Part shown: positions 22,301 through 48,529 of the stretch, piece after piece
Position numbering within the stretch: the first letter of the stretch is position 1
Layout: every line of letters starts with the position of its first letter
NCBI GenBank assembly: GCA_938083505.1
Contig: CALKCF010000002.1
Span: 26,874-90,873, forward strand
DNA from: an uncultured archaeon
Lineage (GTDB): Archaea; Thermoproteota; Nitrososphaeria_A; Caldarchaeales; Wolframiiraptoraceae
Direction of reading: 5' to 3'
Length of the DNA: 64,000 nucleotides
Translations under genes and position numbers: made by a program
The notes under the pieces: generated by a model
Database searches by the model: none
The model's input: the letters and a program-made list of their open reading frames with translations, nothing else
Told to the model about the DNA's origin: nothing

Positions 22301-25300
22301 TTAACTGACTGTGAGCCTTTTATGGAAAATGATTTTTAGCTTTAACGATTTCTTCCGTTCTAGAATGCTTTTTTCCCTCACCCAATCGTAGACCAAATAT
22401 GTAGTGCAAGCTATTAGGGTGGTGATTGATACTATTAAGCCTATGTAAAACCATTTTTGAGGCTCGTATTCGATGGTAATCTCCAAGAGGCCAGTCTGGT
22501 TTATCCAGAAGCCATTTATCACGCCGTATAATGGCATGGACTGTATTCTTTCTCCATTTACATACGCAACCCATAGAGAGTCGTAAGATTCTGCGAAAGA
22601 GAGCATAAATGGTTTGGTTGCGTTTACCTTTACCACGTATTTTGTTGGATCGATTTTCTGGTAGCTTATCACCTCTGCTGGATTTTCTTTAGGTGCAAAA
22701 ATGTCTTCCAAGGTTTCGTTATTATTTTGGACCGAGTAGAGCCAAATTACGTCCAAGTCTGCTAATGCGTTTATAACCTCTATCATATGTCTTCCTTTTT
22801 CTAGGTTTATCGGCCCGATGTAGATCCACTTCAGTTGCGGTGAGCTGACTTCATATTTCTTTTCGTTTATATTTATTGTTAGGTTTCCTTTGCTTCTGAT
22901 TCCGAGTGTGTAGCTTCCAGGTTTTATTATCTCTATTTCACCCCAGACTTTTGATGTTAGGTTTAATTCTAGGACTTTACCATTGCTGGCTTCTCCGCCA
23001 TACTTATTCGATACTATGCTATTTTGGTAGTAGAGATCTGACTCCGCTTCTAGGACATAGATTATCCTTTTGTCCTGAAGAAGCTGTTCTATTTGATTTT
23101 GGACATTTTGATATTCCTGTTTGGGGATTAATGCGAATAGGTTTATTGCATTGAGTCCTCCAATGTTTATTAGAGTTATTCTATGAGAGCCTTTTTCTAG
23201 ATGTAGAACATCTATTTGTTTCCATACAAATTTGTTAAGTTGATCTTTAGTGTTTATAGTGTAGCTTTTATTGTCTAGTTGGATTTGAATACTTCCACCT
23301 CGCTGGTTTTGGAAGAGGCGGATTAGAAATACGTATTCGTCTGTTTCATGTATTGTAAATGGAATTTCCAGAGCAACTGTCTTGTCTTTCAGGGTTGAAA
23401 CAGCCCAAGTGAAAACTAACCCTTCACTATAGTCAGATTGCCAGTTCTCAATACCGAATTTTTCTAAGTAAGGGTGCCAATCTGCATGTAGTAAATCTGC
23501 TGTTGAGGATTTAGACCAGAGTCTCGCTGGATTGACGAAATATGTAAATTTAAAGGGTGCTAAAATGACGCCCACCTTGCTAGCCTTCGCATAGAGACAT
23601 AGTGATTCGAAATCAAGTATTGCTGCTTGAGCTGCTTTTACCACATCATCCCTACACTCGGTTATCACTGCGATATGAAATGGAAATTGCGGAAATGTTA
23701 TCGTGTAGAAATTTTCCCCATCTAGATCAGATAATATCAAACTCTTTGGGATGTAGAAAAGTGTGAGATTACGCGGATTCTCACATATCGTCAGATAATT
23801 TAGTTTATTACAATTCAAATACTGGTAGTCCACTCTAAAGTTTGATGCGCCTAATATATCGGTTCTCTTAATGATATATTTTATGTTGAGATCGTCTAGA
23901 AGCTGCTGAGGCCCCTCTTTTCGAGTCAACATTTTCACATATTCGAGACCTATATTGTGTGTTGAGCCTATGGATCGTTCCAAGTTTTTAGATATTGATT
24001 TTTGATCGTTCCAAACATATCTCCATGTGCCAAGAATCTTTTGAGCCGAGCTCGGATATATCCATAAAACCTTGTGATCCAAAAGGATTTTATCTTTCAT
24101 GTCGTAATACTCTAGTGGCATGTAGGTTGGTGAATATACATCATTTATATAGACTAGCGATGGGGAAGATACTACATTCATAATGATCAGAGCTAGGAGT
24201 AAGAATGTCAGGCTAGAACTTTTTTTGCCCCTTAACGAGCTAAGACCCAATAGTAGTATCATAATAAGGAATATTGGAAGTAAAATGCTAAGTCTTCCCC
24301 ATTCTCTAAGCGGAGCGAAGAGGTCGATATATCCCAATTGTCCGAAGATGTGAATGATGTTGTAGAGGAGGGGATTATTCGTTCCTTGAATAAAGAAGAT
24401 CAGCCCTATAACGAACACTGCTGAAGGAAGAACGAGTGCTTTATGTTTCTTTTGTGATACCTCTGAGATGAGTATTGCGAATGTAAACATGAATAAAAGT
24501 AGAGAAGTCACACGAAACAGGGGGTTTTTGAGAAGGGTCGCTGGAACTTTTGGCCACCAATTATTGGAAAACGTGAAGATGTTAATCAAATTTCCATTTC
24601 TCGAAAGCATCGATAGCTGATCTATACTCATGGGAATAGGATACTCTAGACCCTTAAACATATGCAATAACAGAAGTGGCATGTTCATAAAGAAATAGAT
24701 AATAATAGGTCCACCAATAAATAAAAGAAGATTCTTTGCTTTCTTATTAAACAAGAATATCGAAGATATAGTTAAGAACGTATGTATGATAAACATGTAG
24801 ATAAAGTTGTGAGGTATTATACCGTAGATCGCAAATAGCAACGAATAAATTATTAAATTCTTCAGTCTTCTATTCGATATATAGGCCAATCCAAAATATA
24901 GATATAATGGAAATATCGCATAAGCAACCCATATCCATATATGTGCCAGCCTTTCAACTGACCATAGATTGAGGTAATAGAATAAAGTTATAACCAGAAC
25001 TAGCATGGCTCGGCGACTTTTTCCTGCTTCAAACAGAGAACTTAGCTTTAATATACCATAACAGCCTAGAATAATTGAGACTAAAATGGCGACACTTGTA
25101 ATCTGACTATCAGTAATGGTAGATATTAAATTTGTTAACGCAGTTATACTTCCTTCCAACAAAAAACTCCGTATAATGTGTAATGTTGGGGCCCCGAGCC
25201 GCTCGTTAAATACATAGTAGATCATTCGATATTTTTCAAGTCCGGAACTGACACCTATATTTGATGAGAAATCTCCATAAGCAAAATTTAAGTAGCCGTC

Positions 25301-25399
25301 AAGCAGCGGAAAAAGCAGAGGTTTAAATAGAGCAATAAAAATAACTAAAGAAAGCAAAAAAGATACTAAAGGTAAATTTTTTGTGAAAAACTTCTTCAT
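22301..25399 (-). CDS. large GT-C-like polytopic membrane protein with extracellular beta-rich region and C-terminal anchor (YfhO-like architecture)
   Basis: 1032 aa. About 430 aa are multi-TM, followed by a long soluble region. The C-terminal module FAESYDSLWVAYVNGERIQSMPLYGVINGFWINQTGLLEITIEYEPQKW plus a TM resembles the YfhO-family C-terminus. The gene is very A+T-rich. Confidence 0.6.
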   Translation of the reverse strand: MKKFFTKNLPLVSFLLSLVIFIALFKPLLFPLLDGYLNFAYGDFSSNIGVSSGLEKYRMIYYVFNERLGAPTLHIIRSFLLEGSITALTNLISTITDSQITSVAILVSIILGCYGILKLSSLFEAGKSRRAMLVLVITLFYYLNLWSVERLAHIWIWVAYAIFPLYLYFGLAYISNRRLKNLIIYSLLFAIYGIIPHNFIYMFIIHTFLTISSIFLFNKKAKNLLLFIGGPIIIYFFMNMPLLLLHMFKGLEYPIPMSIDQLSMLSRNGNLINIFTFSNNWWPKVPATLLKNPLFRVTSLLLFMFTFAILISEVSQKKHKALVLPSAVFVIGLIFFIQGTNNPLLYNIIHIFGQLGYIDLFAPLREWGRLSILLPIFLIMILLLGLSSLRGKKSSSLTFLLLALIIMNVVSSPSLVYINDVYSPTYMPLEYYDMKDKILLDHKVLWIYPSSAQKILGTWRYVWNDQKSISKNLERSIGSTHNIGLEYVKMLTRKEGPQQLLDDLNIKYIIKRTDILGASNFRVDYQYLNCNKLNYLTICENPRNLTLFYIPKSLILSDLDGENFYTITFPQFPFHIAVITECRDDVVKAAQAAILDFESLCLYAKASKVGVILAPFKFTYFVNPARLWSKSSTADLLHADWHPYLEKFGIENWQSDYSEGLVFTWAVSTLKDKTVALEIPFTIHETDEYVFLIRLFQNQRGGSIQIQLDNKSYTINTKDQLNKFVWKQIDVLHLEKGSHRITLINIGGLNAINLFALIPKQEYQNVQNQIEQLLQDKRIIYVLEAESDLYYQNSIVSNKYGGEASNGKVLELNLTSKVWGEIEIIKPGSYTLGIRSKGNLTININEKKYEVSSPQLKWIYIGPINLEKGRHMIEVINALADLDVIWLYSVQNNNETLEDIFAPKENPAEVISYQKIDPTKYVVKVNATKPFMLSFAESYDSLWVAYVNGERIQSMPLYGVINGFWINQTGLLEITIEYEPQKWFYIGLIVSITTLIACTTYLVYDWVREKSILERKKSLKLKIIFHKRLTVS

Positions 25400-28749: not shown

Positions 28750-30762
28750 TTACGCTTTGTAGAATATAATATTGGTTTTAGTTAATTTCTTCAACCGTTC
28801 TAGCGTGACGTTATTCTTTATCCAACTATAAGCCAAGTACAGGGTACAGGCGATTAGAGTTATACCGGATATTATTGAACCAATATGGAACCATTTTTGG
28901 GGCGGGTACTCTATGATGATCTCCAATAAGCCGGTCTGGTTGATCCAAAAACCATTAATGAAACCATAAAGAGGAATTGATGAATAGCTTTCGTTGGAAA
29001 CATAGGCGCGCCATTCACTGTCATAAGGGGCCGCAAATGCTAGTAAGAAAGGAGATGAGGTGTTTATTGTTACTTTCCATAAGGTAGGACTTTCTTGTTT
29101 ATACTTAATTATTTCTGTCTTCCCCATATTTTGCAGAAAAACTTCTTTCAACTTTTTGTTTTCATCGCTTGTATAAATCCATATATCTCCTAAACGCGTG
29201 TTATCTAACGCTTTAATTTTTAGTTCTTGGCAACCCCTTGTTAAAAATGTGGAACCGACATCGATTATTCCATATTGGTTAGAAGCTACATAGAATGTTT
29301 GGTTGGCGATGGTTATTTCGGCAGTTCCTAAAATTTCAGCCGAAATTCTATAGTTACCTTCTTTGAGGATATGCAAGTTTTTTATTACGATTTTCTGTTT
29401 TGGAATTATCAAGATATCATCGAATTTCTGTTTTGGAATTATTAAGATATCATCGAACCATGTGGTTGCATTTCCTTTTGACGTGTCTAACACCCAGCCG
29501 GCATTTAATGCTATCCGTAGCATAGTTATTTCACTATCTAATTCTAAGTCGGCAATGTGTTTCTTCCAATTATATGATCCATATTGAGCTGCGGGCACTT
29601 GAATGAGTTGAATCCATGTGTTTGTAGTCCTGTTTAATCCTTCTATGACTATATGGCTTGCTTCGGCATTTTCCTGTTTTATATGCGTTACTATTTGATA
29701 TTCGCCTGGAGTTATTGGTATCGCTGAGCTTCTTATCCAGCTCCAATGCCAAGTGGAGGTTACCTGTGTTGTTACTTTAAGGCTAACGTTTCCTCGATAT
29801 TTTACCTGGTCGTCAAGTGTAGCCGTAAACCCTTCTTCTGGTTGAGACCAGTAAAGTGGATAATGGTCTACTGCTTCTTCAAAAGAAGGGTTCTTTACAA
29901 TGTTAGTTTCAAAACTTAGTGGATCTATGAGGTAAATTATTGTTGCGTTTTTTAGTTTTGATGTGAGCATTTGTTCTGTTTGCCCTTTGCTCAATATTAA
30001 TATTTGGTCTATGTAGTTTTCTCCGTCTATGTTGGAGATTGTTAATGTATGAGATTGACTTGAGTTTCCTTGGTATAGTTTCACCCACTCAAGTGAAAAG
30101 GCACTAGATAAAGTTATCACATTTCTTTCATTCTCACCATCTAACATGAATCTTATTTTTCCTCCGTTTGGCCATTTAAGGATCTTCGCCCATATTTCAA
30201 AAAGGCCTTTCATTTCTATTGGTATTTTTAACTCGCTTTCAGCTTTCGTGAACGCTCCGTTGTTTATTGTAGATGCGAAGAGATAATTGTACCAGAACCA
30301 GTTTTTGCTATTTATCCAACCTTTTTGGGCGTCTGTTTGTATTGCATAGTTTCCAGGATCTATTTTTGTCCCTAACAATATTGATATTATGTCAAGCATG
30401 TCGTTTTTTATAACGAATATTGGAGTATTGATTTTCAGTTGAGTAATGTCAGTTAAATAAGCAATGTCTGTTAGGTTTAATAATTTTGCTAGGTGGATCA
30501 ATATTGATAGTTCAGCCGTCCCATATATTACCGTGGAAGGCGTATATATGAATTCTGTTGTTTTTGTATTTTGATACAACTTGAACTCAGGTTTTTCGTC
30601 TTTAAGTTCGAGGTCCCGTTGATGCGTGATGAAGTTAGATGTCACGTCAGGCTCCCACTTTTCGAGGAGGTAGGGATAAAGAGCTAACGGGACGTAAAGT
30701 GGATACTTTGATGTAAAGTCTTTTCTTTGGATTACGTATTTTGTGGCGAATAGGCTTATCAA
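28750..30762 (-). CDS. surface/membrane-anchored paralog of the 22301-25399 extracellular region, lacking the polytopic N-domain
   Basis: 670 aa from a TTG start. The C-terminus FAAPYDSEWRAYVSNESYSSIPLYGFINGFWINQTGLLEIIIEYPPQKWFHIGSIISGITLIACTLYL aligns residue for residue with the 1032-aa protein. Confidence 0.65.
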   Translation of the reverse strand: MISLFATKYVIQRKDFTSKYPLYVPLALYPYLLEKWEPDVTSNFITHQRDLELKDEKPEFKLYQNTKTTEFIYTPSTVIYGTAELSILIHLAKLLNLTDIAYLTDITQLKINTPIFVIKNDMLDIISILLGTKIDPGNYAIQTDAQKGWINSKNWFWYNYLFASTINNGAFTKAESELKIPIEMKGLFEIWAKILKWPNGGKIRFMLDGENERNVITLSSAFSLEWVKLYQGNSSQSHTLTISNIDGENYIDQILILSKGQTEQMLTSKLKNATIIYLIDPLSFETNIVKNPSFEEAVDHYPLYWSQPEEGFTATLDDQVKYRGNVSLKVTTQVTSTWHWSWIRSSAIPITPGEYQIVTHIKQENAEASHIVIEGLNRTTNTWIQLIQVPAAQYGSYNWKKHIADLELDSEITMLRIALNAGWVLDTSKGNATTWFDDILIIPKQKFDDILIIPKQKIVIKNLHILKEGNYRISAEILGTAEITIANQTFYVASNQYGIIDVGSTFLTRGCQELKIKALDNTRLGDIWIYTSDENKKLKEVFLQNMGKTEIIKYKQESPTLWKVTINTSSPFLLAFAAPYDSEWRAYVSNESYSSIPLYGFINGFWINQTGLLEIIIEYPPQKWFHIGSIISGITLIACTLYLAYSWIKNNVTLERLKKLTKTNIIFYKA
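29393..29458. repeat. 33-bp in-frame tandem duplication (2 copies, 2 mismatches) inside the 670-aa gene
   Basis: Copy 1 (29393-29425) is TTCTGTTTTGGAATTATCAAGATATCATCGAAT. Copy 2 (29426-29458) is TTCTGTTTTGGAATTATTAAGATATCATCGAAC. They encode FDDILIIPKQK twice. Confidence 0.9.
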
Positions 30763-43990: not shown

Positions 43991-44179
43991 TCTGCTAACC
44001 TCTCCTCAATCATAACATACTCAATATCCGGAAGTCACATCTCTTGTCCCTTAAACCCGTGATGCTGGGAGCCCTCCATACCTCGGTTTCACCCGATAGT
44101 CCGAGGAGGAATGCGACCGTTGTACTGTATCGAGGGGTCTGATTAAAAGTTATTAAAGCACTATTAGCTGATTAAATTG

Positions 44180-45703
44180 ATGAAATTTGAAGTAATTTCG
44201 ACGAATTTAGAAGGTGTAAGGGTTGATTCTCTCATTATTCAATTCTTTGAGGGTGCTGAGGTTCCAGAAGCTGTGGTTACGCTACCCGAGAGTATCAAAG
44301 AGGAGATAGAGCCCTCGATTGGGACAGGCGGCTTCAAGGCCAAGCTCGGTCAGGTGCTTCCAGTGTATCCAAAATCTGCGGACGCCATCCGCTGCTTTCT
44401 GCTATTAGGCCTGGGAAGTAGGAAAGATTTCAGCCTAGAGGCTGTAAGGCAGGCTCACGGTTATGCGGCCATAAGAGCCAAGGAGATAGGCAGTAAGAGC
44501 ATAACGGTGCCCATATTCAGCATACCTCCCTACACCGCTCCCGAGATAACTGCCAGCGTTGTCGAGGCAATAAACCTGGCTTTTTACAGGTTTGACAGGT
44601 ACAAGTCAAAGGTCGAGGATGGTAAATATCCGGAGCTTGTCAGACTCGTGGCAGATCCGGACGTAAGGAATATGTGTGATGCAGCGGCCAATGAGGCCGC
44701 CATAGTCTCGGAGGCCGTAAAGCTTGCGAGGGACTTAACCAACATGCCAAGTAGTGATATACCGCCAAAAAAGATGGCGGAGATAGCGACCGAGGTCGGA
44801 ATGGTAAGCGGTTTCTCTACAAAGGTCTTAGAGGCAGAGGTGCTTGAAAGAATGGGAATGGGAGGCATAGTGAACGTCGGGAAAGGTAGCTCCAACCCGC
44901 CGGTCTTGATAATCATGAAGTACGACGGTGGCGGCGATACTTATGTGGTCGTAGGGAAAGGTGTGGTGTTCGATAGCGGAGGTATATCCCTAAAGCCGTC
45001 GGAGAAGATGGAGGAGATGAAGTATGACAAAGCGGGCGCAGCCGCAGTCATCGCACTCATGAAGGCGGTAGCGGAACTTAAGCTTCCCGTAAGGCTAATA
45101 GGTATAGTGCCCGCCGTCGAAAACCTGCCAAGTAGCAACGCACTTAAGCCCGGCGATATAATAAGATTCAGAAACGGAAAGACTGCGGAGATTATAAGCA
45201 CGGATGCGGAGGGTAGGTTGATACTTGCGGACGCTCTTGCCTACGCATCCGAGATGCGACCAAAGGTCATAGTAGACTTGGCAACACTGACCGGTGCCTG
45301 CGTTATAGCCCTCGGAACGCATGCAAGTGGCTTATTCAGCAACAACGACGAGCTAGCTGAGGCGCTTATAAAGGCAGGAGAAAAGACTGGAGAGAGACTT
45401 TGGAGACTTCCGCTCTGGAAGGATTACTTCGAGCAGATAAAGAGCGATGTGGCTGATATGAAGAACGTCGGCGGTAGAGCCGCAGGCGCGATAACCGCGG
45501 CAGCCTTCCTGATGAACTTTGTAGAGGGGAACATACCTTGGGCCCATATAGACATAGCTGGGACTGCATGGACCCAAGAATCGTCGCCAGAGAAGAGCTA
45601 CATACCGAAAGGTGCTACAGGCGTTGGTGTTAGATTACTCGTCGAATTCCTGAAGTCGGAGATTAAACGAGTTAAGCCTTACCCATCGGATGCCAACACT
45701 TAA
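44180..45703 (+). CDS. pepA: leucyl aminopeptidase (M17)
   Basis: VVGKGVVFDSGGISLKP and NTDAEGRL-type STDAEGRLILADAL are the M17 metal-site blocks. Confidence 0.9.
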   Translation: MKFEVISTNLEGVRVDSLIIQFFEGAEVPEAVVTLPESIKEEIEPSIGTGGFKAKLGQVLPVYPKSADAIRCFLLLGLGSRKDFSLEAVRQAHGYAAIRAKEIGSKSITVPIFSIPPYTAPEITASVVEAINLAFYRFDRYKSKVEDGKYPELVRLVADPDVRNMCDAAANEAAIVSEAVKLARDLTNMPSSDIPPKKMAEIATEVGMVSGFSTKVLEAEVLERMGMGGIVNVGKGSSNPPVLIIMKYDGGGDTYVVVGKGVVFDSGGISLKPSEKMEEMKYDKAGAAAVIALMKAVAELKLPVRLIGIVPAVENLPSSNALKPGDIIRFRNGKTAEIISTDAEGRLILADALAYASEMRPKVIVDLATLTGACVIALGTHASGLFSNNDELAEALIKAGEKTGERLWRLPLWKDYFEQIKSDVADMKNVGGRAAGAITAAAFLMNFVEGNIPWAHIDIAGTAWTQESSPEKSYIPKGATGVGVRLLVEFLKSEIKRVKPYPSDANT

Positions 45704-45763: not shown

Positions 45764-48529
45764 GTGTTTGTAGGTGGACTGAGGTTGCATAGGGTCGCGG
45801 TCATAGATTACGATTTCTGTCAGCCAACCAAGTGCGGCCAGCCCTGCATATCATTCTGCCCGCCCGTGAGGAATAAGATAGAGGCCATCAAGCTCGGTGA
45901 GAAGGGATTTCCAGTAATTAACGAAGTGCTGTGTATTGGGTGCGGTATATGCCTCGACCCGAACACACCAGTGGTAACAGAGGCTGGTTTGAAGCCCATT
46001 AGAGAGGTTAAGGTAGGCGACAAAGTACTCACACATAAAGGAAGGTTTAGGACTGTTCTCTCAAAAAGCGTCAGGCTGTATACCGGCCCCCTCTACAGAA
46101 TAGAGGTACATGGTATACCGGACCCGATACTGCTAACCGAGGATCATCCTTTACTCGTCGCTTCAAAGAACCAAGAAGCGGATGATTTTACGTTTGCCTG
46201 GAAAACCCCGCCCGAACTGAAAGAAGGCGATTACCTTTGTGCTCCAATAGTTACAAACGAAGGTTGTTTAGGGCAGCAAGAACAGCTCACTATCACTACC
46301 TCAGGAGTGCTAGCCCAATCGTTATCCTTTGAATTGACGTTCAAGCTCGGTATAATATTCGGTTATTACCTTGCCAGGGGGTCTGTAGAGCGTGAAAAAG
46401 TCGTATTTAGATTCGAAAGGGAGGGTATGGTTAAAAAGGCAGAGGAGCTTCTAGAGAAATGCTTCGGTGTGAAAGTCATCCAGAAAGGCCCCAGATCGTT
46501 CTTTGTAAACTCGGAGCCTTTAGCCAATCTGTTCCGCAACATTCTCGGAGGCTCGGAAGATTCTAAGAGGATACCAATGAGCTTCCTATCCGCATCCTTA
46601 GACTTCTTAAAAGGTTTCATCTTAGGATTCATAGAGGCTGGGGATAATCGTACGAGTCCTTACATTTCCATGAATAATGCATACATCTTAAAGTTGATGG
46701 GAGCAAGGCTTAGCTTACCGTTATCAATAAAAAAGGTCGCAAATGCTTATGCAATCTCACTCAGCGATAGGGGGAATGTATCATCAGGAGGTTACCAACT
46801 AAACATAATAAACTCAGTGAAGGTTGAGTTTGTGAAAGATTACCTAGTAATAAACTTAGAAGTCGAAGATGACGAGACATACAACGCCGTAGGGCTTATA
46901 GTTCATAACTGTGTTAAGAAGTGCCCGTTTGAAGCGATCACGATAGTTAACCTGAGCGAAGAGCTTGGTAGGGACATGGTGCACCAATACGGTGTGAATT
47001 CGTTCAGGCTTTACAGGCTTCCATACTTGGAGAAGGAAAAAGTCATCGGTATAATCGGAAAGAACGGCATAGGTAAGACCACAGCGTTGCAGATACTTGC
47101 GGGCCGTATTGTCCCGAACTTAGGCAAGTTATGCGAGGAGAAATCCCTACATGATGTTGCCAGAATGTTCAGGGGCTCACTTATACAAGATTATTTGACG
47201 AAGCTCGCCAGCGGTGATGTAAAAATTTCATACAAGCCGCAATACATCGACACGATACCAAAAGTCGTTAAAGGTAAAGTTGGCGCAATTTTGTTAAAGA
47301 TTGGTCCCGAAGAGCGTGTTAACAAGCTAATAGACATGCTGGAGCTCCGCAACCTATTGGATAGGGATGTTTCTGTACTTAGCGGCGGTGAGCTCCAACG
47401 CCTTGCGATAGCGGCTTGCCTTGCAAGGGATGCTAATGCGTTCATACTAGACGAGCCGACCAGCTTCCTTGATATAAAGCAAAGGTTTAGGATAGCTTCA
47501 GTAATCAGGGAGCGCGCGCGGGAGGGCATGGCCCTCGTATCTGACCATGACCTCGCGGTTCTTGACTATATATCGGATAAGGTTTTCGTGTTTTACGGCG
47601 AGCCAGGGGTATACGGCATCGTCGCAGGCCCTTATGGTGTTAGGGAGGGCATAAATATATTCATAGAAGGATACATACCTGACGAGAATGTAAGGTTTAG
47701 GAGTGAAAGGATATTGTTCCAGCTGAGGCCTCCAACGGAGGCTTATGAAGAGGGTTACTTAAGGCTCTACTGGCCGAGCATGACAAAAACCTATGATGTC
47801 TTTAGGCTGGAGGTCGAAGAGGGCTATGCATATCCTGGCGAGGTGATCGGTATAGTGGGTCCAAACGGTATAGGTAAAACAACCTTCATAAAAATATTGG
47901 CGGGCATCGAGAAGGCTGATGCGGAGTTTCAGTTACCTTATAGGACGATAAGTTACAAGCCACAGTATCCAGAGATAAAGGACGAGAAAGTTGAAGTCGT
48001 TCTTAAAGAAGCTGCTGGAAGCAAGTTCAATACCGACCTTTACCAATCAGAGCTGATTAGAGCATTGGGTCTACATAAGATACTTGAAAGGAATGTTAGA
48101 GAGCTGAGTGGTGGCGAGCTCCAGAAGGTTGCAATAGCTGAGGCCCTTTCAAAGGATGCTGAAATTTACCTGATAGACGAACCGAGCGCGTACCTGGACG
48201 TCGAAGAAAGGTATACAGTCGCAAAGTTGCTGAAGAGGATAACACGCGAAAGGCAGGCCCATACATTCCTCGTTGAGCATGACCTTATGGTATTAGACTT
48301 TGCATCAAGCAGATTGATGGTTTTCTCGGGCGAGCCGGGTATCAGCGGACATGCCAGCAAACCCATGGACCTTAGGTCAGGGTTCAACGCTTTTCTAAAA
48401 GATATGGGTGTCACATTCAGGAGGGACCAACAGACGTTCAGGCCGAGAGCGAACAAGCCCGATTCTAGATTGGACAAACAACAAAAAGCGATCGGTGAGT
48501 ATTACTATCCAGTACCGACCTCGGAGTAA
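45764..48529 (+). CDS. abce1: ABCE1 (RNase L inhibitor / ribosome recycling ATPase) interrupted by an intein
   Basis: The extein is 601 aa. It has the N-terminal FeS motifs CQPTKCGQPCISFCP and CIGCGI|CVKKCP, plus two ABC domains (GKNGIGKTT, LSGGELQR; GPNGIGKTT, LSGGELQK). The true start may be TTG 45785 (MHRVAVIDYD). Confidence 0.9.
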   Translation: MFVGGLRLHRVAVIDYDFCQPTKCGQPCISFCPPVRNKIEAIKLGEKGFPVINEVLCIGCGICLDPNTPVVTEAGLKPIREVKVGDKVLTHKGRFRTVLSKSVRLYTGPLYRIEVHGIPDPILLTEDHPLLVASKNQEADDFTFAWKTPPELKEGDYLCAPIVTNEGCLGQQEQLTITTSGVLAQSLSFELTFKLGIIFGYYLARGSVEREKVVFRFEREGMVKKAEELLEKCFGVKVIQKGPRSFFVNSEPLANLFRNILGGSEDSKRIPMSFLSASLDFLKGFILGFIEAGDNRTSPYISMNNAYILKLMGARLSLPLSIKKVANAYAISLSDRGNVSSGGYQLNIINSVKVEFVKDYLVINLEVEDDETYNAVGLIVHNCVKKCPFEAITIVNLSEELGRDMVHQYGVNSFRLYRLPYLEKEKVIGIIGKNGIGKTTALQILAGRIVPNLGKLCEEKSLHDVARMFRGSLIQDYLTKLASGDVKISYKPQYIDTIPKVVKGKVGAILLKIGPEERVNKLIDMLELRNLLDRDVSVLSGGELQRLAIAACLARDANAFILDEPTSFLDIKQRFRIASVIRERAREGMALVSDHDLAVLDYISDKVFVFYGEPGVYGIVAGPYGVREGINIFIEGYIPDENVRFRSERILFQLRPPTEAYEEGYLRLYWPSMTKTYDVFRLEVEEGYAYPGEVIGIVGPNGIGKTTFIKILAGIEKADAEFQLPYRTISYKPQYPEIKDEKVEVVLKEAAGSKFNTDLYQSELIRALGLHKILERNVRELSGGELQKVAIAEALSKDAEIYLIDEPSAYLDVEERYTVAKLLKRITRERQAHTFLVEHDLMVLDFASSRLMVFSGEPGISGHASKPMDLRSGFNAFLKDMGVTFRRDQQTFRPRANKPDSRLDKQQKAIGEYYYPVPTSE
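45950..46909 (+). mobile_element. 320-aa intein with LAGLIDADG-type homing endonuclease domain
   Basis: It starts with Cys (CLDPNTPVVTEAG) and has block B TEDHPLLV. The LAGLIDADG-like motifs are LGIIFGYYLARGS and FLKGFILGFIEAGD. It ends GLIVHN and is followed by the +1 Cys (CVKKCPFEA). Confidence 0.85.

Follow-up and report, generated by a model that had tools for sequence, protein, structure and literature searches.

The window analyzed here is a 64,000-nt stretch of DNA from an uncultured hot-spring archaeon, and all coordinates are given in its numbering. On its forward strand it carries a gene for ABCE1 (RLI), a core translation factor that is universal and essential in archaea and eukaryotes. 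The open reading frame (ORF) of this gene contains a 320-codon in-frame insert, a candidate intein, which divides the iron-sulfur (Fe-S) domain of the host protein. The features of the locus are as follows.

45764..48529, + strand: ABCE1/RLI precursor gene, longest ORF of 921 aa from GTG 45764, stop codon included
45785..45949, + strand: N-extein, first part of the Fe-S domain, ending ...CIGCGI; Fer4_RLI (PF04068) match at ORF residues 10-37
45818, 45833, 45845, 45857, 45932 and 45941, + strand: codons of conserved Cys 1-6, on the N-extein
45950..46909, + strand: predicted class 1 intein, 320 aa, Cys1 to His319-Asn320
45950..46261, + strand: predicted HINT N-terminal lobe, intein residues 1-104, 70-82% identity within the clade
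45950-45991, + strand: block A, CLDPNTPVVTEAGL, in the HINT N-terminal lobe
46124-46156, + strand: block B, PILLTEDHPLL, with T63 and H66 invariant
46262..46321, + strand: linker between HINT lobe and nuclease-like domain, intein residues 105-124; predicted local distance difference test score (pLDDT) <50; nonsynonymous rate (dN) 0.51, the highest of all segments
46322..46774, + strand: degenerate LAGLIDADG homing-endonuclease-like domain, intein residues 125-275
46340-46381, + strand: block C, FKLGIIFGYYLARG, with Arg143 (46376-46378) at the acidic position
46598-46648, + strand: block E, LDFLKGFILGFIEAGDN, with Gly231 (46640-46642) at the acidic position
46775..46909, + strand: predicted HINT C-terminal lobe, intein residues 276-320
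46841-46885, + strand: block F, YLVINLEVEDDETYN, with Asn302 where most inteins have Asp
46892-46909, + strand: block G, GLIVHN
46910..48529, + strand: C-extein, comprising the +1 Cys, CVKKCP and then both ATP-binding cassette (ABC) nucleotide-binding domains, stop codon included
46910-46912, + strand: +1 Cys, the 7th conserved Cys
46922-46924, + strand: Cys+5, the 8th conserved Cys (of CVKKCP)

The ORF matched the NCBIfam equivalog model of RLI (NF009945) at 793.7 bits, against a cut-off of 469. Profile positions 56-589 corresponded to ORF residues 382-915, with the ABCE1 match restarting at position 56 directly past the insert. The eight Fe-S cysteines (Cys19, 24, 28, 32, 57, 60, +1, and +5) were all found, ABC_tran was matched twice, and the extein is under strong purifying selection, with a dN/dS ratio (omega) of ~0.05. 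The insert starts with TGC (Cys1) from 45950 and ends with CAT AAC (His-Asn) at 46904-46909, followed by the TGT of the +1 Cys at 46910, which places it between CIGCGI and CVKKCP. The initial annotation, made from the letters alone, had counted 921 aa for the ORF and 601 aa after removal of the insert. Both the ORF and the arithmetic (921-320 = 601) are correct, but the start is probably another one. Since orthologs begin MHRVAV, which corresponds to TTG 45785 and not to GTG 45764, the true start is probably TTG 45785, and 921 aa is then seven residues too long. The precursor would be of 914 aa and the spliced protein of 594 aa, which is the length of an ordinary archaeal ABCE1.

When the insert was removed in silico, the resulting N-terminus aligned without a gap to the solved ABCE1 proteins 6tmf_d and 3bk7, and the spliced 12-mer CIGCGICVKKCP was identical in 6tmf_d. 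The junction between CIGCGI and CVKKCP and the seamless extein had both been proposed in the initial annotation, and the hallmarks listed there were likewise all present: Cys1, the TEDH of block B (T63/H66), the LAGLIDADG-like motifs IFGYYLARG and LKGFILGFIEAGDN, and a terminal HN followed by Cys. Cys1, T63, H66, H319, and N320 were unchanged in 18 of the 18 aligned inteins, and the +1 residue was Cys in every host. A class 3 intein, which would be marked by the Trp-Cys-Thr triplet (Trp in block B, Cys in block F, Thr in block G), was considered and rejected, as block F has Asn302 without a Cys and block G reads GLIVHN.

An AlphaFold2 model of the intein, built on the 18-intein alignment, had a pLDDT of 87.5 and a predicted template modeling score (pTM) of 0.86, and was poor only in the 20-residue linker. 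The pLDDT of the HINT N-terminal lobe was mostly 94-98, with 75 at residues 71-80; that of the C-terminal lobe was 93-98 from residue 281, with 71 at residues 271-280, across the domain boundary. A Foldseek search of the PDB with this model returned the PhoVMA intein as the top match (E 1.1e-17, query TM-score (TMq) 0.73), followed by other nuclease-bearing inteins, namely TliVMA, PI-PkoII, PI-SceI, and PI-PfuI. The mini-inteins gp41-1, DnaB, and Prp8 matched the HINT lobes of the model. The profile of the 18 inteins agreed with this picture, matching the TliVMA intein (E 2.6e-19) and PI-PkoII (E 3e-17) in the PDB, as well as the mini-inteins gp41-1 and MJ0781/KlbA over the N-terminal lobe. 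Additionally, phmmer matched the central part of the insert with the PhoVMA nuclease domain (P. horikoshii, 7qst, E 5.5e-9). The TliVMA, PI-PkoII, and PhoVMA matches by profile and fold far exceed what chance would give. Judged from the sequence and the predicted structure, every defining intein feature that can be read from them is present.

A whole-protein search identified 3334 ABCE1 clusters, and carriers were counted in the best 120 of the 3334. About 19 of these 120 (874-977 aa) were archaeal orthologs with an intein at the same site, and most of the 3334 clusters were ~595 aa long, that is, of intein-less length. The insertion point was identical in all aligned carriers (18 ABCE1 including that of the window), with the consensus C[ITV][GSA]CGI / C...VHN / C[VI][KR]KCP, where slashes mark the junctions; intein-less ABCE1 run through this point without a gap (CIGCGI-CAAKCP). 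When one genome per GTDB species was scanned, the closest carriers fell in Candidatus Terraquivivens yellowstonensis, tengchongensis, tikiterensis, and ruidianensis, members of a genus assigned to the Wolframiiraptoraceae of the Nitrososphaerota. These close-clade carriers were 86-91% identical to the window protein in the extein and 58-72% in the intein, and all four genomes are collinear with the window at ~80% nucleotide identity over 9 kb. Because of this collinearity at such an identity, the window is assigned on sequence grounds to a species related to the four. Two proteins (P0017 and P0018) are more distant relatives of the close clade, with an extein identity of 77%. Other carriers included a protein of the Bathyarchaeota archaeon BA1 and a set in metagenome-assembled genomes (MAGs) of the Thermoplasmata type.

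The BA1 extein was 77% identical to an intein-less Bathyarchaeota ABCE1, compared with 51-56% to other intein-bearing proteins. Judged from these sequences, the presence of the intein cuts across host similarity in the sporadic pattern of a mobile element, which rules out a conserved ABCE1 domain, the outcome that the initial annotation had named as fatal to an intein; most ABCE1 proteins lack the insert. An intein restricted to the window was also considered and rejected, as the intein, besides being fixed in the genus, also occurs in other lineages of archaea. When the intein by itself served as query in a word-indexed homolog search, the matches were all NuoI inteins (26-30% identity) and ABCE1 inteins that are 58-67% identical were missed, so no match in that search does not mean absence from the database. 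The BA1 protein (P0071, Candidatus Bathyarchaeota archaeon BA1, 969 aa), an intein-bearing ABCE1, is labeled 'Trehalose/maltose import ATP-binding protein MalK' at its source; this is probably a mis-annotation that arose because the intein breaks the Fe-S domain match.

The nuclease-like domain has the pseudo-dimeric LAGLIDADG fold in the model, with the two LAGLIDADG-like helices, IFGYYLARG and LKGFILGFIEAGDN, at residues 131-143 and 217-230 and a pLDDT of ~90 over residues 131-270. The free-standing LAGLIDADG enzymes I-DmoI and I-Tsp061I matched it by fold, as did the nuclease domains of the VMA inteins. The acidic catalytic residues are absent: Arg143 (GYYLARG) and Gly231 (GFIEAGDN) stand where relatives have Glu and Asp, and the Thermoplasmata and Bathyarchaeota relatives, together with the aligned NuoI inteins, keep GYYL[AS]EG and W[RW]GDG. 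In all six members of the Terraquivivens clade the block C Glu is replaced by Arg, Lys, or Asn, and block E is different in each of them (AGDN, AGGD, AKGC, AGNG, VGKN, and AGRN). The domain is also shorter than in the intact-looking relatives (151 versus 184 aa, a difference of ~33 aa), and its isoelectric point is 5.2 to 9.6 in the clade against ~10 in those relatives.

More advanced stages were found in sister lineages. The first half of the nuclease domain is deleted in P0017 and P0018. In P0015/L005 (774 aa; L005 4001-4540), whose extein is 95% identical to the ABCE1 of Ca. T. yellowstonensis, an in-frame loss of ~140 codons removed the whole nuclease-like domain and left a 180-aa mini-intein at the same site. 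Within the clade, identity was 68-82% in the HINT lobes and 50-64% in the nuclease domain, and dN was lowest in the extein (0.064), intermediate in the HINT lobes (0.15-0.17), and higher in the nuclease domain (0.31) and the linker (0.51). These comparisons indicate that purifying selection acts on the splicing lobes. An 88-aa ORF lies antisense within the nuclease-like domain (46366-46632, - strand) and has no sign of being a gene.

The domain might nevertheless be an active homing endonuclease with non-canonical catalytic residues, for example Asp232, shifted by one position, or Glu229, in which case the intein would still be mobile. The retained fold, a dN/dS ratio well below 1, and the Asp beside the expected position in the window (AGDN) are compatible with activity. 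Against it stand the replacement of the block C acid throughout the clade and the variation of block E from member to member, which leaves no catalytic residue conserved. The ~30 aa missing relative to the intact-looking relatives, the deletion of the domain in sister lineages, and the lack of an intein-free clade allele to home into among the matches listed point the same way, as does the precedent of PhoVMA, where the same kind of loss left no cleavage (PMC8966425). An active nuclease is accordingly considered very unlikely. Since the catalytic residues tested for are absent, the window intein is, as far as its sequence tells, not an active LAGLIDADG endonuclease, and its nuclease-like domain is best described as a constrained predicted fold without a catalytic center. 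The suspicion of inactivity voiced in the initial annotation on account of the Arg is thus borne out by the intact-looking relatives, with their Glu and Asp at the positions of Arg143 and Gly231, and by the sister lineages that deleted part or all of the domain.

Among the matches listed in the whole-protein ABCE1 search, none above 70% extein identity was an intein-free allele, and the relatives rank in the same order by intein identity and by extein identity. From these two observations, together with the synteny shared with four intein-bearing Terraquivivens genomes and the decay of the nuclease, the intein looks fixed, vertically inherited, and immobile in the Terraquivivens lineage. Base composition was uninformative in this respect: the intein had a GC content of 0.443, against 0.476 for the extein and 0.435 for the whole window, and no signature of foreign DNA was seen, with GC and third-position GC (GC3) of the intein slightly below the extein and equal to the window mean.

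Taken together, the sequence and the predicted structure make it very probable that the insert is a class 1 HINT intein with a decayed LAGLIDADG-type nuclease, predicted to splice, immobile, and vertically inherited. The intein at 45950-46909 proposed in the initial annotation is thereby upheld to the exact coordinates and residue numbers, on the evidence of its blocks, predicted fold, seamless splicing in silico, and sporadic distribution. Several observations weigh against this interpretation or parts of it. The window intein scored below the curated cut-offs of Pfam (Intein_splicing 25.8 versus 35.8 bits; Hint_2 22.5 versus 28.4) and of NCBIfam (intein_Nterm 19.1 versus 24.5; intein_Cterm 12.9 versus 15.6). 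The usual block F Asp is replaced by Asn302, which aligns with the Asp of PI-PkoII and is Asn in all 18 family members; since Asn holds this position throughout the family, splicing may proceed with unusual kinetics. The nuclease-like domain changes at well below the neutral rate, with dN 0.31 against a synonymous rate (dS) >1.3 and omega at most ~0.2, and it may therefore retain some role, such as support of folding or splicing, or DNA binding. These ratios are rough, as saturation of synonymous sites (dS above 1) extends to all the Terraquivivens sequences available, which leaves only upper bounds on omega as usable.

Each of the first two points has a plausible explanation. A search with hidden Markov models (HMMs) of the Hint domain, suggested in the initial annotation, did yield intein matches in Pfam and NCBIfam, but all were below the curated cut-offs; such matches are equivocal alone, and confirmation by profile, structural, and comparative evidence was needed. 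Related inteins in the same alignment family clear the cut-offs (for example P0132, 71.8 bits), and the low scores reflect the limited sensitivity of the models and do not concern a defining feature. Similarly, the Asn in block F appears from the alignment to be a family trait and not decay, because it is invariant in all 18 members.

The sub-threshold scores are also what could be cited for a non-splicing insert, that is, a lineage-specific ABCE1 domain, a disabling pseudogene insertion, or an assembly artefact. Such an origin is hard to credit. The residues that catalyze splicing do not vary, no other part of the insert is as well conserved as the HINT lobes, the fold is like that of solved inteins, and the low omega of the extein speaks for strong purifying selection on the host protein. 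Independent MAGs, among them ones from Yellowstone, Tengchong, and New Zealand, have the same insertion with conserved synteny. Moreover, 320 unspliced residues between the cluster ligands of an essential protein would be unlikely to be tolerated.

The position of the class 1 intein bears directly on the metal sites of its host. The eight cysteines of ABCE1 hold two clusters, a ferredoxin-like one (Cys 4-7) and an ABCE1-type one (Cys 1, 2, 3, and 8), as given in a passage of PMC4247197 that cites Barthelme 2007, and both [4Fe-4S] clusters are essential for ABCE1 (PMC8153317). In the window protein, Cys 1-6 lie on the N-extein, and the 7th (+1) and 8th (+5) lie on the C-extein. The initial annotation had identified the +1 nucleophile as an Fe-S ligand and concluded that one cluster could not be bound before splicing. 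The first part stands, as the +1 Cys is the 7th Cys and, by the assignment in that passage of PMC4247197, belongs to the ferredoxin-like cluster. The second requires correction: because the 7th Cys (ferredoxin-like cluster) and the 8th (the other cluster) are both on the C-extein, each of the two clusters would be one ligand short in the precursor until splicing. That the precursor is unable to load its clusters is a reasonable inference from this arrangement. As a caveat, the two ends of an intein are close in space, and Cys1 keeps a CIGCGIC (CxxCxxC) string in the precursor.

On the established class 1 mechanism, from which the following steps are taken, a precursor of ~914 aa would be translated from the ABCE1 gene, and Cys1 would carry out an N-S acyl shift at the Ile(-1)-Cys1 bond, aided by Thr63 and His66 of block B. 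The +1 Cys would then attack the thioester (trans-thioesterification), and cyclization of Asn320, aided by His319, would free an intein of ~36 kDa. A final S-N shift would yield the mature ABCE1 of ~594 aa with the native CIGCGICVKKCP. As the C-extein carries the 7th and 8th ligands, splicing should precede the native assembly of both [4Fe-4S] clusters, and with it ABCE1 function. With a nuclease that lacks both acidic residues, the element would no longer be mobile and would be inherited vertically; it would be retained since only a precise deletion restores the essential motif.

The thiols at the upstream junction raise the question of regulation. The intein could have been co-opted as a conditional switch, in which a Cys-3/Cys1 disulfide, or binding of a metal or cluster, blocks the first splicing step, and redox state or iron thereby gates the supply of active ABCE1. 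This would add to, and not exclude, the explanation given above. A C(-3)-x-x-C1 arrangement (C-G-I-C1) occurs in every intein-bearing ABCE1, and this Cys-3/Cys1 geometry has been shown to act as a redox trap in two inteins, the native one of P. abyssi MoaA and an engineered one of DnaE (PMC3922620; PMC10663303). Several inteins are inhibited when zinc or copper acts on their active-site residues (PMC10663303), and the ABCE1 intein is still fixed in the genus long after the death of its nuclease, with synonymous sites saturated. However, the CxxC comes automatically from the ferredoxin motif of the host and so gives no evidence of selection for regulation, and the persistence of the intein is accounted for equally well if only a perfectly exact deletion can repair an essential motif. 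The nuclease domain has been shed in one lineage and many ABCE1 proteins have no intein, with no benefit indicated. On balance, a genuine conditional switch is judged unlikely. If it were true, the CxxC and CIGCGIC thiols would form a disulfide or bind metal when conditions are oxidizing or metals out of balance, and so hold back new, oxygen-labile ABCE1 until Fe-S loading is possible.

Fe-S proteins other than ABCE1 also host related inteins. The profile of the aligned inteins matched 30,764 cluster representatives at E ≤ 1e-3, in many hosts. Among the best matches was complex I NuoI, whose second CxxCxxCxxxCP motif has two intein sites: site a, before the first Cys (VDYGR / C...HN / CVFCGxC), and site b, before the third Cys (CVFCG[LF] / C...[HS]N / CVDACP), the same motif position as in ABCE1. 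The intein-bearing NuoI proteins were P0001-P0006, P0129, P0130, P0132, P0133, P0138, P0157, P0180, and P0186, with loci L025/L026 5001-6623. One NuoI is encoded in a nuoH-I-J-K-L-M-N operon adjoining an archaeal SUI1 gene. Both inteins, six residues (CVFCG[LF]) apart, were found in P0129, P0130, and P0132. The site-b inteins examined ended in Ser-Asn, not His-Asn, in four of five cases (P0129, end 985; P0130, 825; P0157, 619; P0180, 485); the fifth, in P0132, ends in His-Asn. SufB is also a host (P0134, P0173, and P0206). A third kind of Fe-S host was observed in P0260 (488 aa; intein 45-418), a small ferredoxin-like protein with an intein directly before the first Cys of its motif CIADGICLQVCP, in which Asp takes the place of the second Cys, as in 3Fe-4S-type motifs.

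Pairwise identities between the ABCE1 intein and the NuoI site-b inteins were 33-41%, no higher than those to SufB inteins. In a neighbor-joining tree with 200 bootstraps, site-specific groups received 97-100% support and deep nodes 35-59%, with 35% at the node for a common origin of the ABCE1 and NuoI site-b inteins. Owing to these deep-branch values and to identities no higher than with SufB, these sequences neither support nor exclude a single origin of the ABCE1 inteins, or a jump between ferredoxin motifs. A broader proposal has the ABCE1 intein gate translation as a natural sensor of redox state or iron and, at the same time, makes the ferredoxin CxxCxxCxxxCP motifs of ABCE1, NuoI, and small ferredoxins a recurrent landing site through which one intein lineage moved between unrelated genes; it is judged unlikely.

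These observations have several implications. With the +1 nucleophile serving as a cluster ligand and a further ligand four residues downstream, a core translation factor would need protein splicing to mature. The list of intein hosts would gain ABCE1, as well as complex I NuoI and small ferredoxins, and Fe-S binding motifs, like P-loops, appear to be favored intein sites. The ABCE1 inteins also form a natural decay series at one site, from an intact-looking nuclease (Thermoplasmata and Bathyarchaeota types) through a catalytically dead one (the window) and a partly deleted one to a 180-aa mini-intein. Such a series would be useful for the study of the homing cycle and may yield thermostable mini-inteins, and the native C(-3)xxC1 makes this translation factor a test case for splicing that depends on redox state or metals.

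Elsewhere in the window, a scan of seven of the eight other ORFs with 450 aa or more (all but the upstream neighbor at 44177..45703) revealed no further intein. Two of the large ORFs, at 22301-25399 (- strand, 1032 aa) and 28750-30762 (- strand, 670 aa), matched no Pfam family at E ≤ 1e-5. The remaining large ORFs scanned were mostly ordinary, encoding PheRS alpha and beta, a polysaccharide-synthesis protein, and a LUD/Fer4/CCG protein, together with a DUF2070 membrane protein whose function is unknown.

Full-text literature searches brought up no account of an ABCE1/RLI intein in nature, and the matches were purification tags; a prior database listing is possible. Descriptions of inteins in 4Fe-4S motifs were likewise not found in the full-text literature, and the main text of the Novikova 2016 intein census does not mention ABC or Fe-S hosts. 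The initial annotation, which did not recall ABCE1 among the classical hosts, agrees with this result, although the agreement is not proof of novelty. ABCE1, as an essential protein with a highly conserved motif, is apparently an undescribed but unsurprising type of intein host, and the NuoI inteins are apparently undescribed as well.

Among known systems, the best sequence and fold matches were the VMA inteins of Pyrococcus horikoshii (PhoVMA, PDB 7qst) and TliVMA (7qss), which are also archaeal class 1 inteins with a HINT fold and a nested LAGLIDADG domain. PhoVMA, the nearest analog with a solved structure, resembles the window intein in having lost the acidic residues of blocks C and E with the fold kept; without both catalytic aspartates it does not cleave DNA, and it was reactivated when the aspartates were grafted back (PMC8966425). 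The two VMA inteins differ from that of the window in their host (V-ATPase subunit A) and site, in an identity of only 16-19%, and in a +1 residue that is not a metal-cluster ligand, and their accessory domain is absent or shorter in the window intein. The nearest functional parallel to a possible switch is the P. abyssi MoaA intein, which likewise resides in an oxygen-sensitive host and whose N-extein Cys-3 pairs with Cys1 (PMC3922620; PMC10663303), with the same C(-3)xxC1 spacing as in the window. It differs in host and pathway, and disulfide control is demonstrated there but hypothetical in the window.

The mycobacterial SufB intein is a known example of an intein in SufB. The SufB inteins belong to the same broad family as the ABCE1 intein and share an Fe-S-related essential host and a +1 Cys; in contrast to ABCE1, SufB assembles clusters and is not a ferredoxin-motif client, and the insertion site (HY[VI]EG / C... 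/ C[ST]AP) is unrelated. The NuoI inteins, of the same broad family at 26-40% identity, also lie in a second ferredoxin motif, with site b at the same position and a +1 Cys that is a cluster ligand. They differ in that the host belongs to a membrane respiratory complex and that a second site lies six residues upstream, with both sites sometimes occupied. Unlike the window intein, the aligned NuoI site-a inteins keep GYYLSEG and WGDG.

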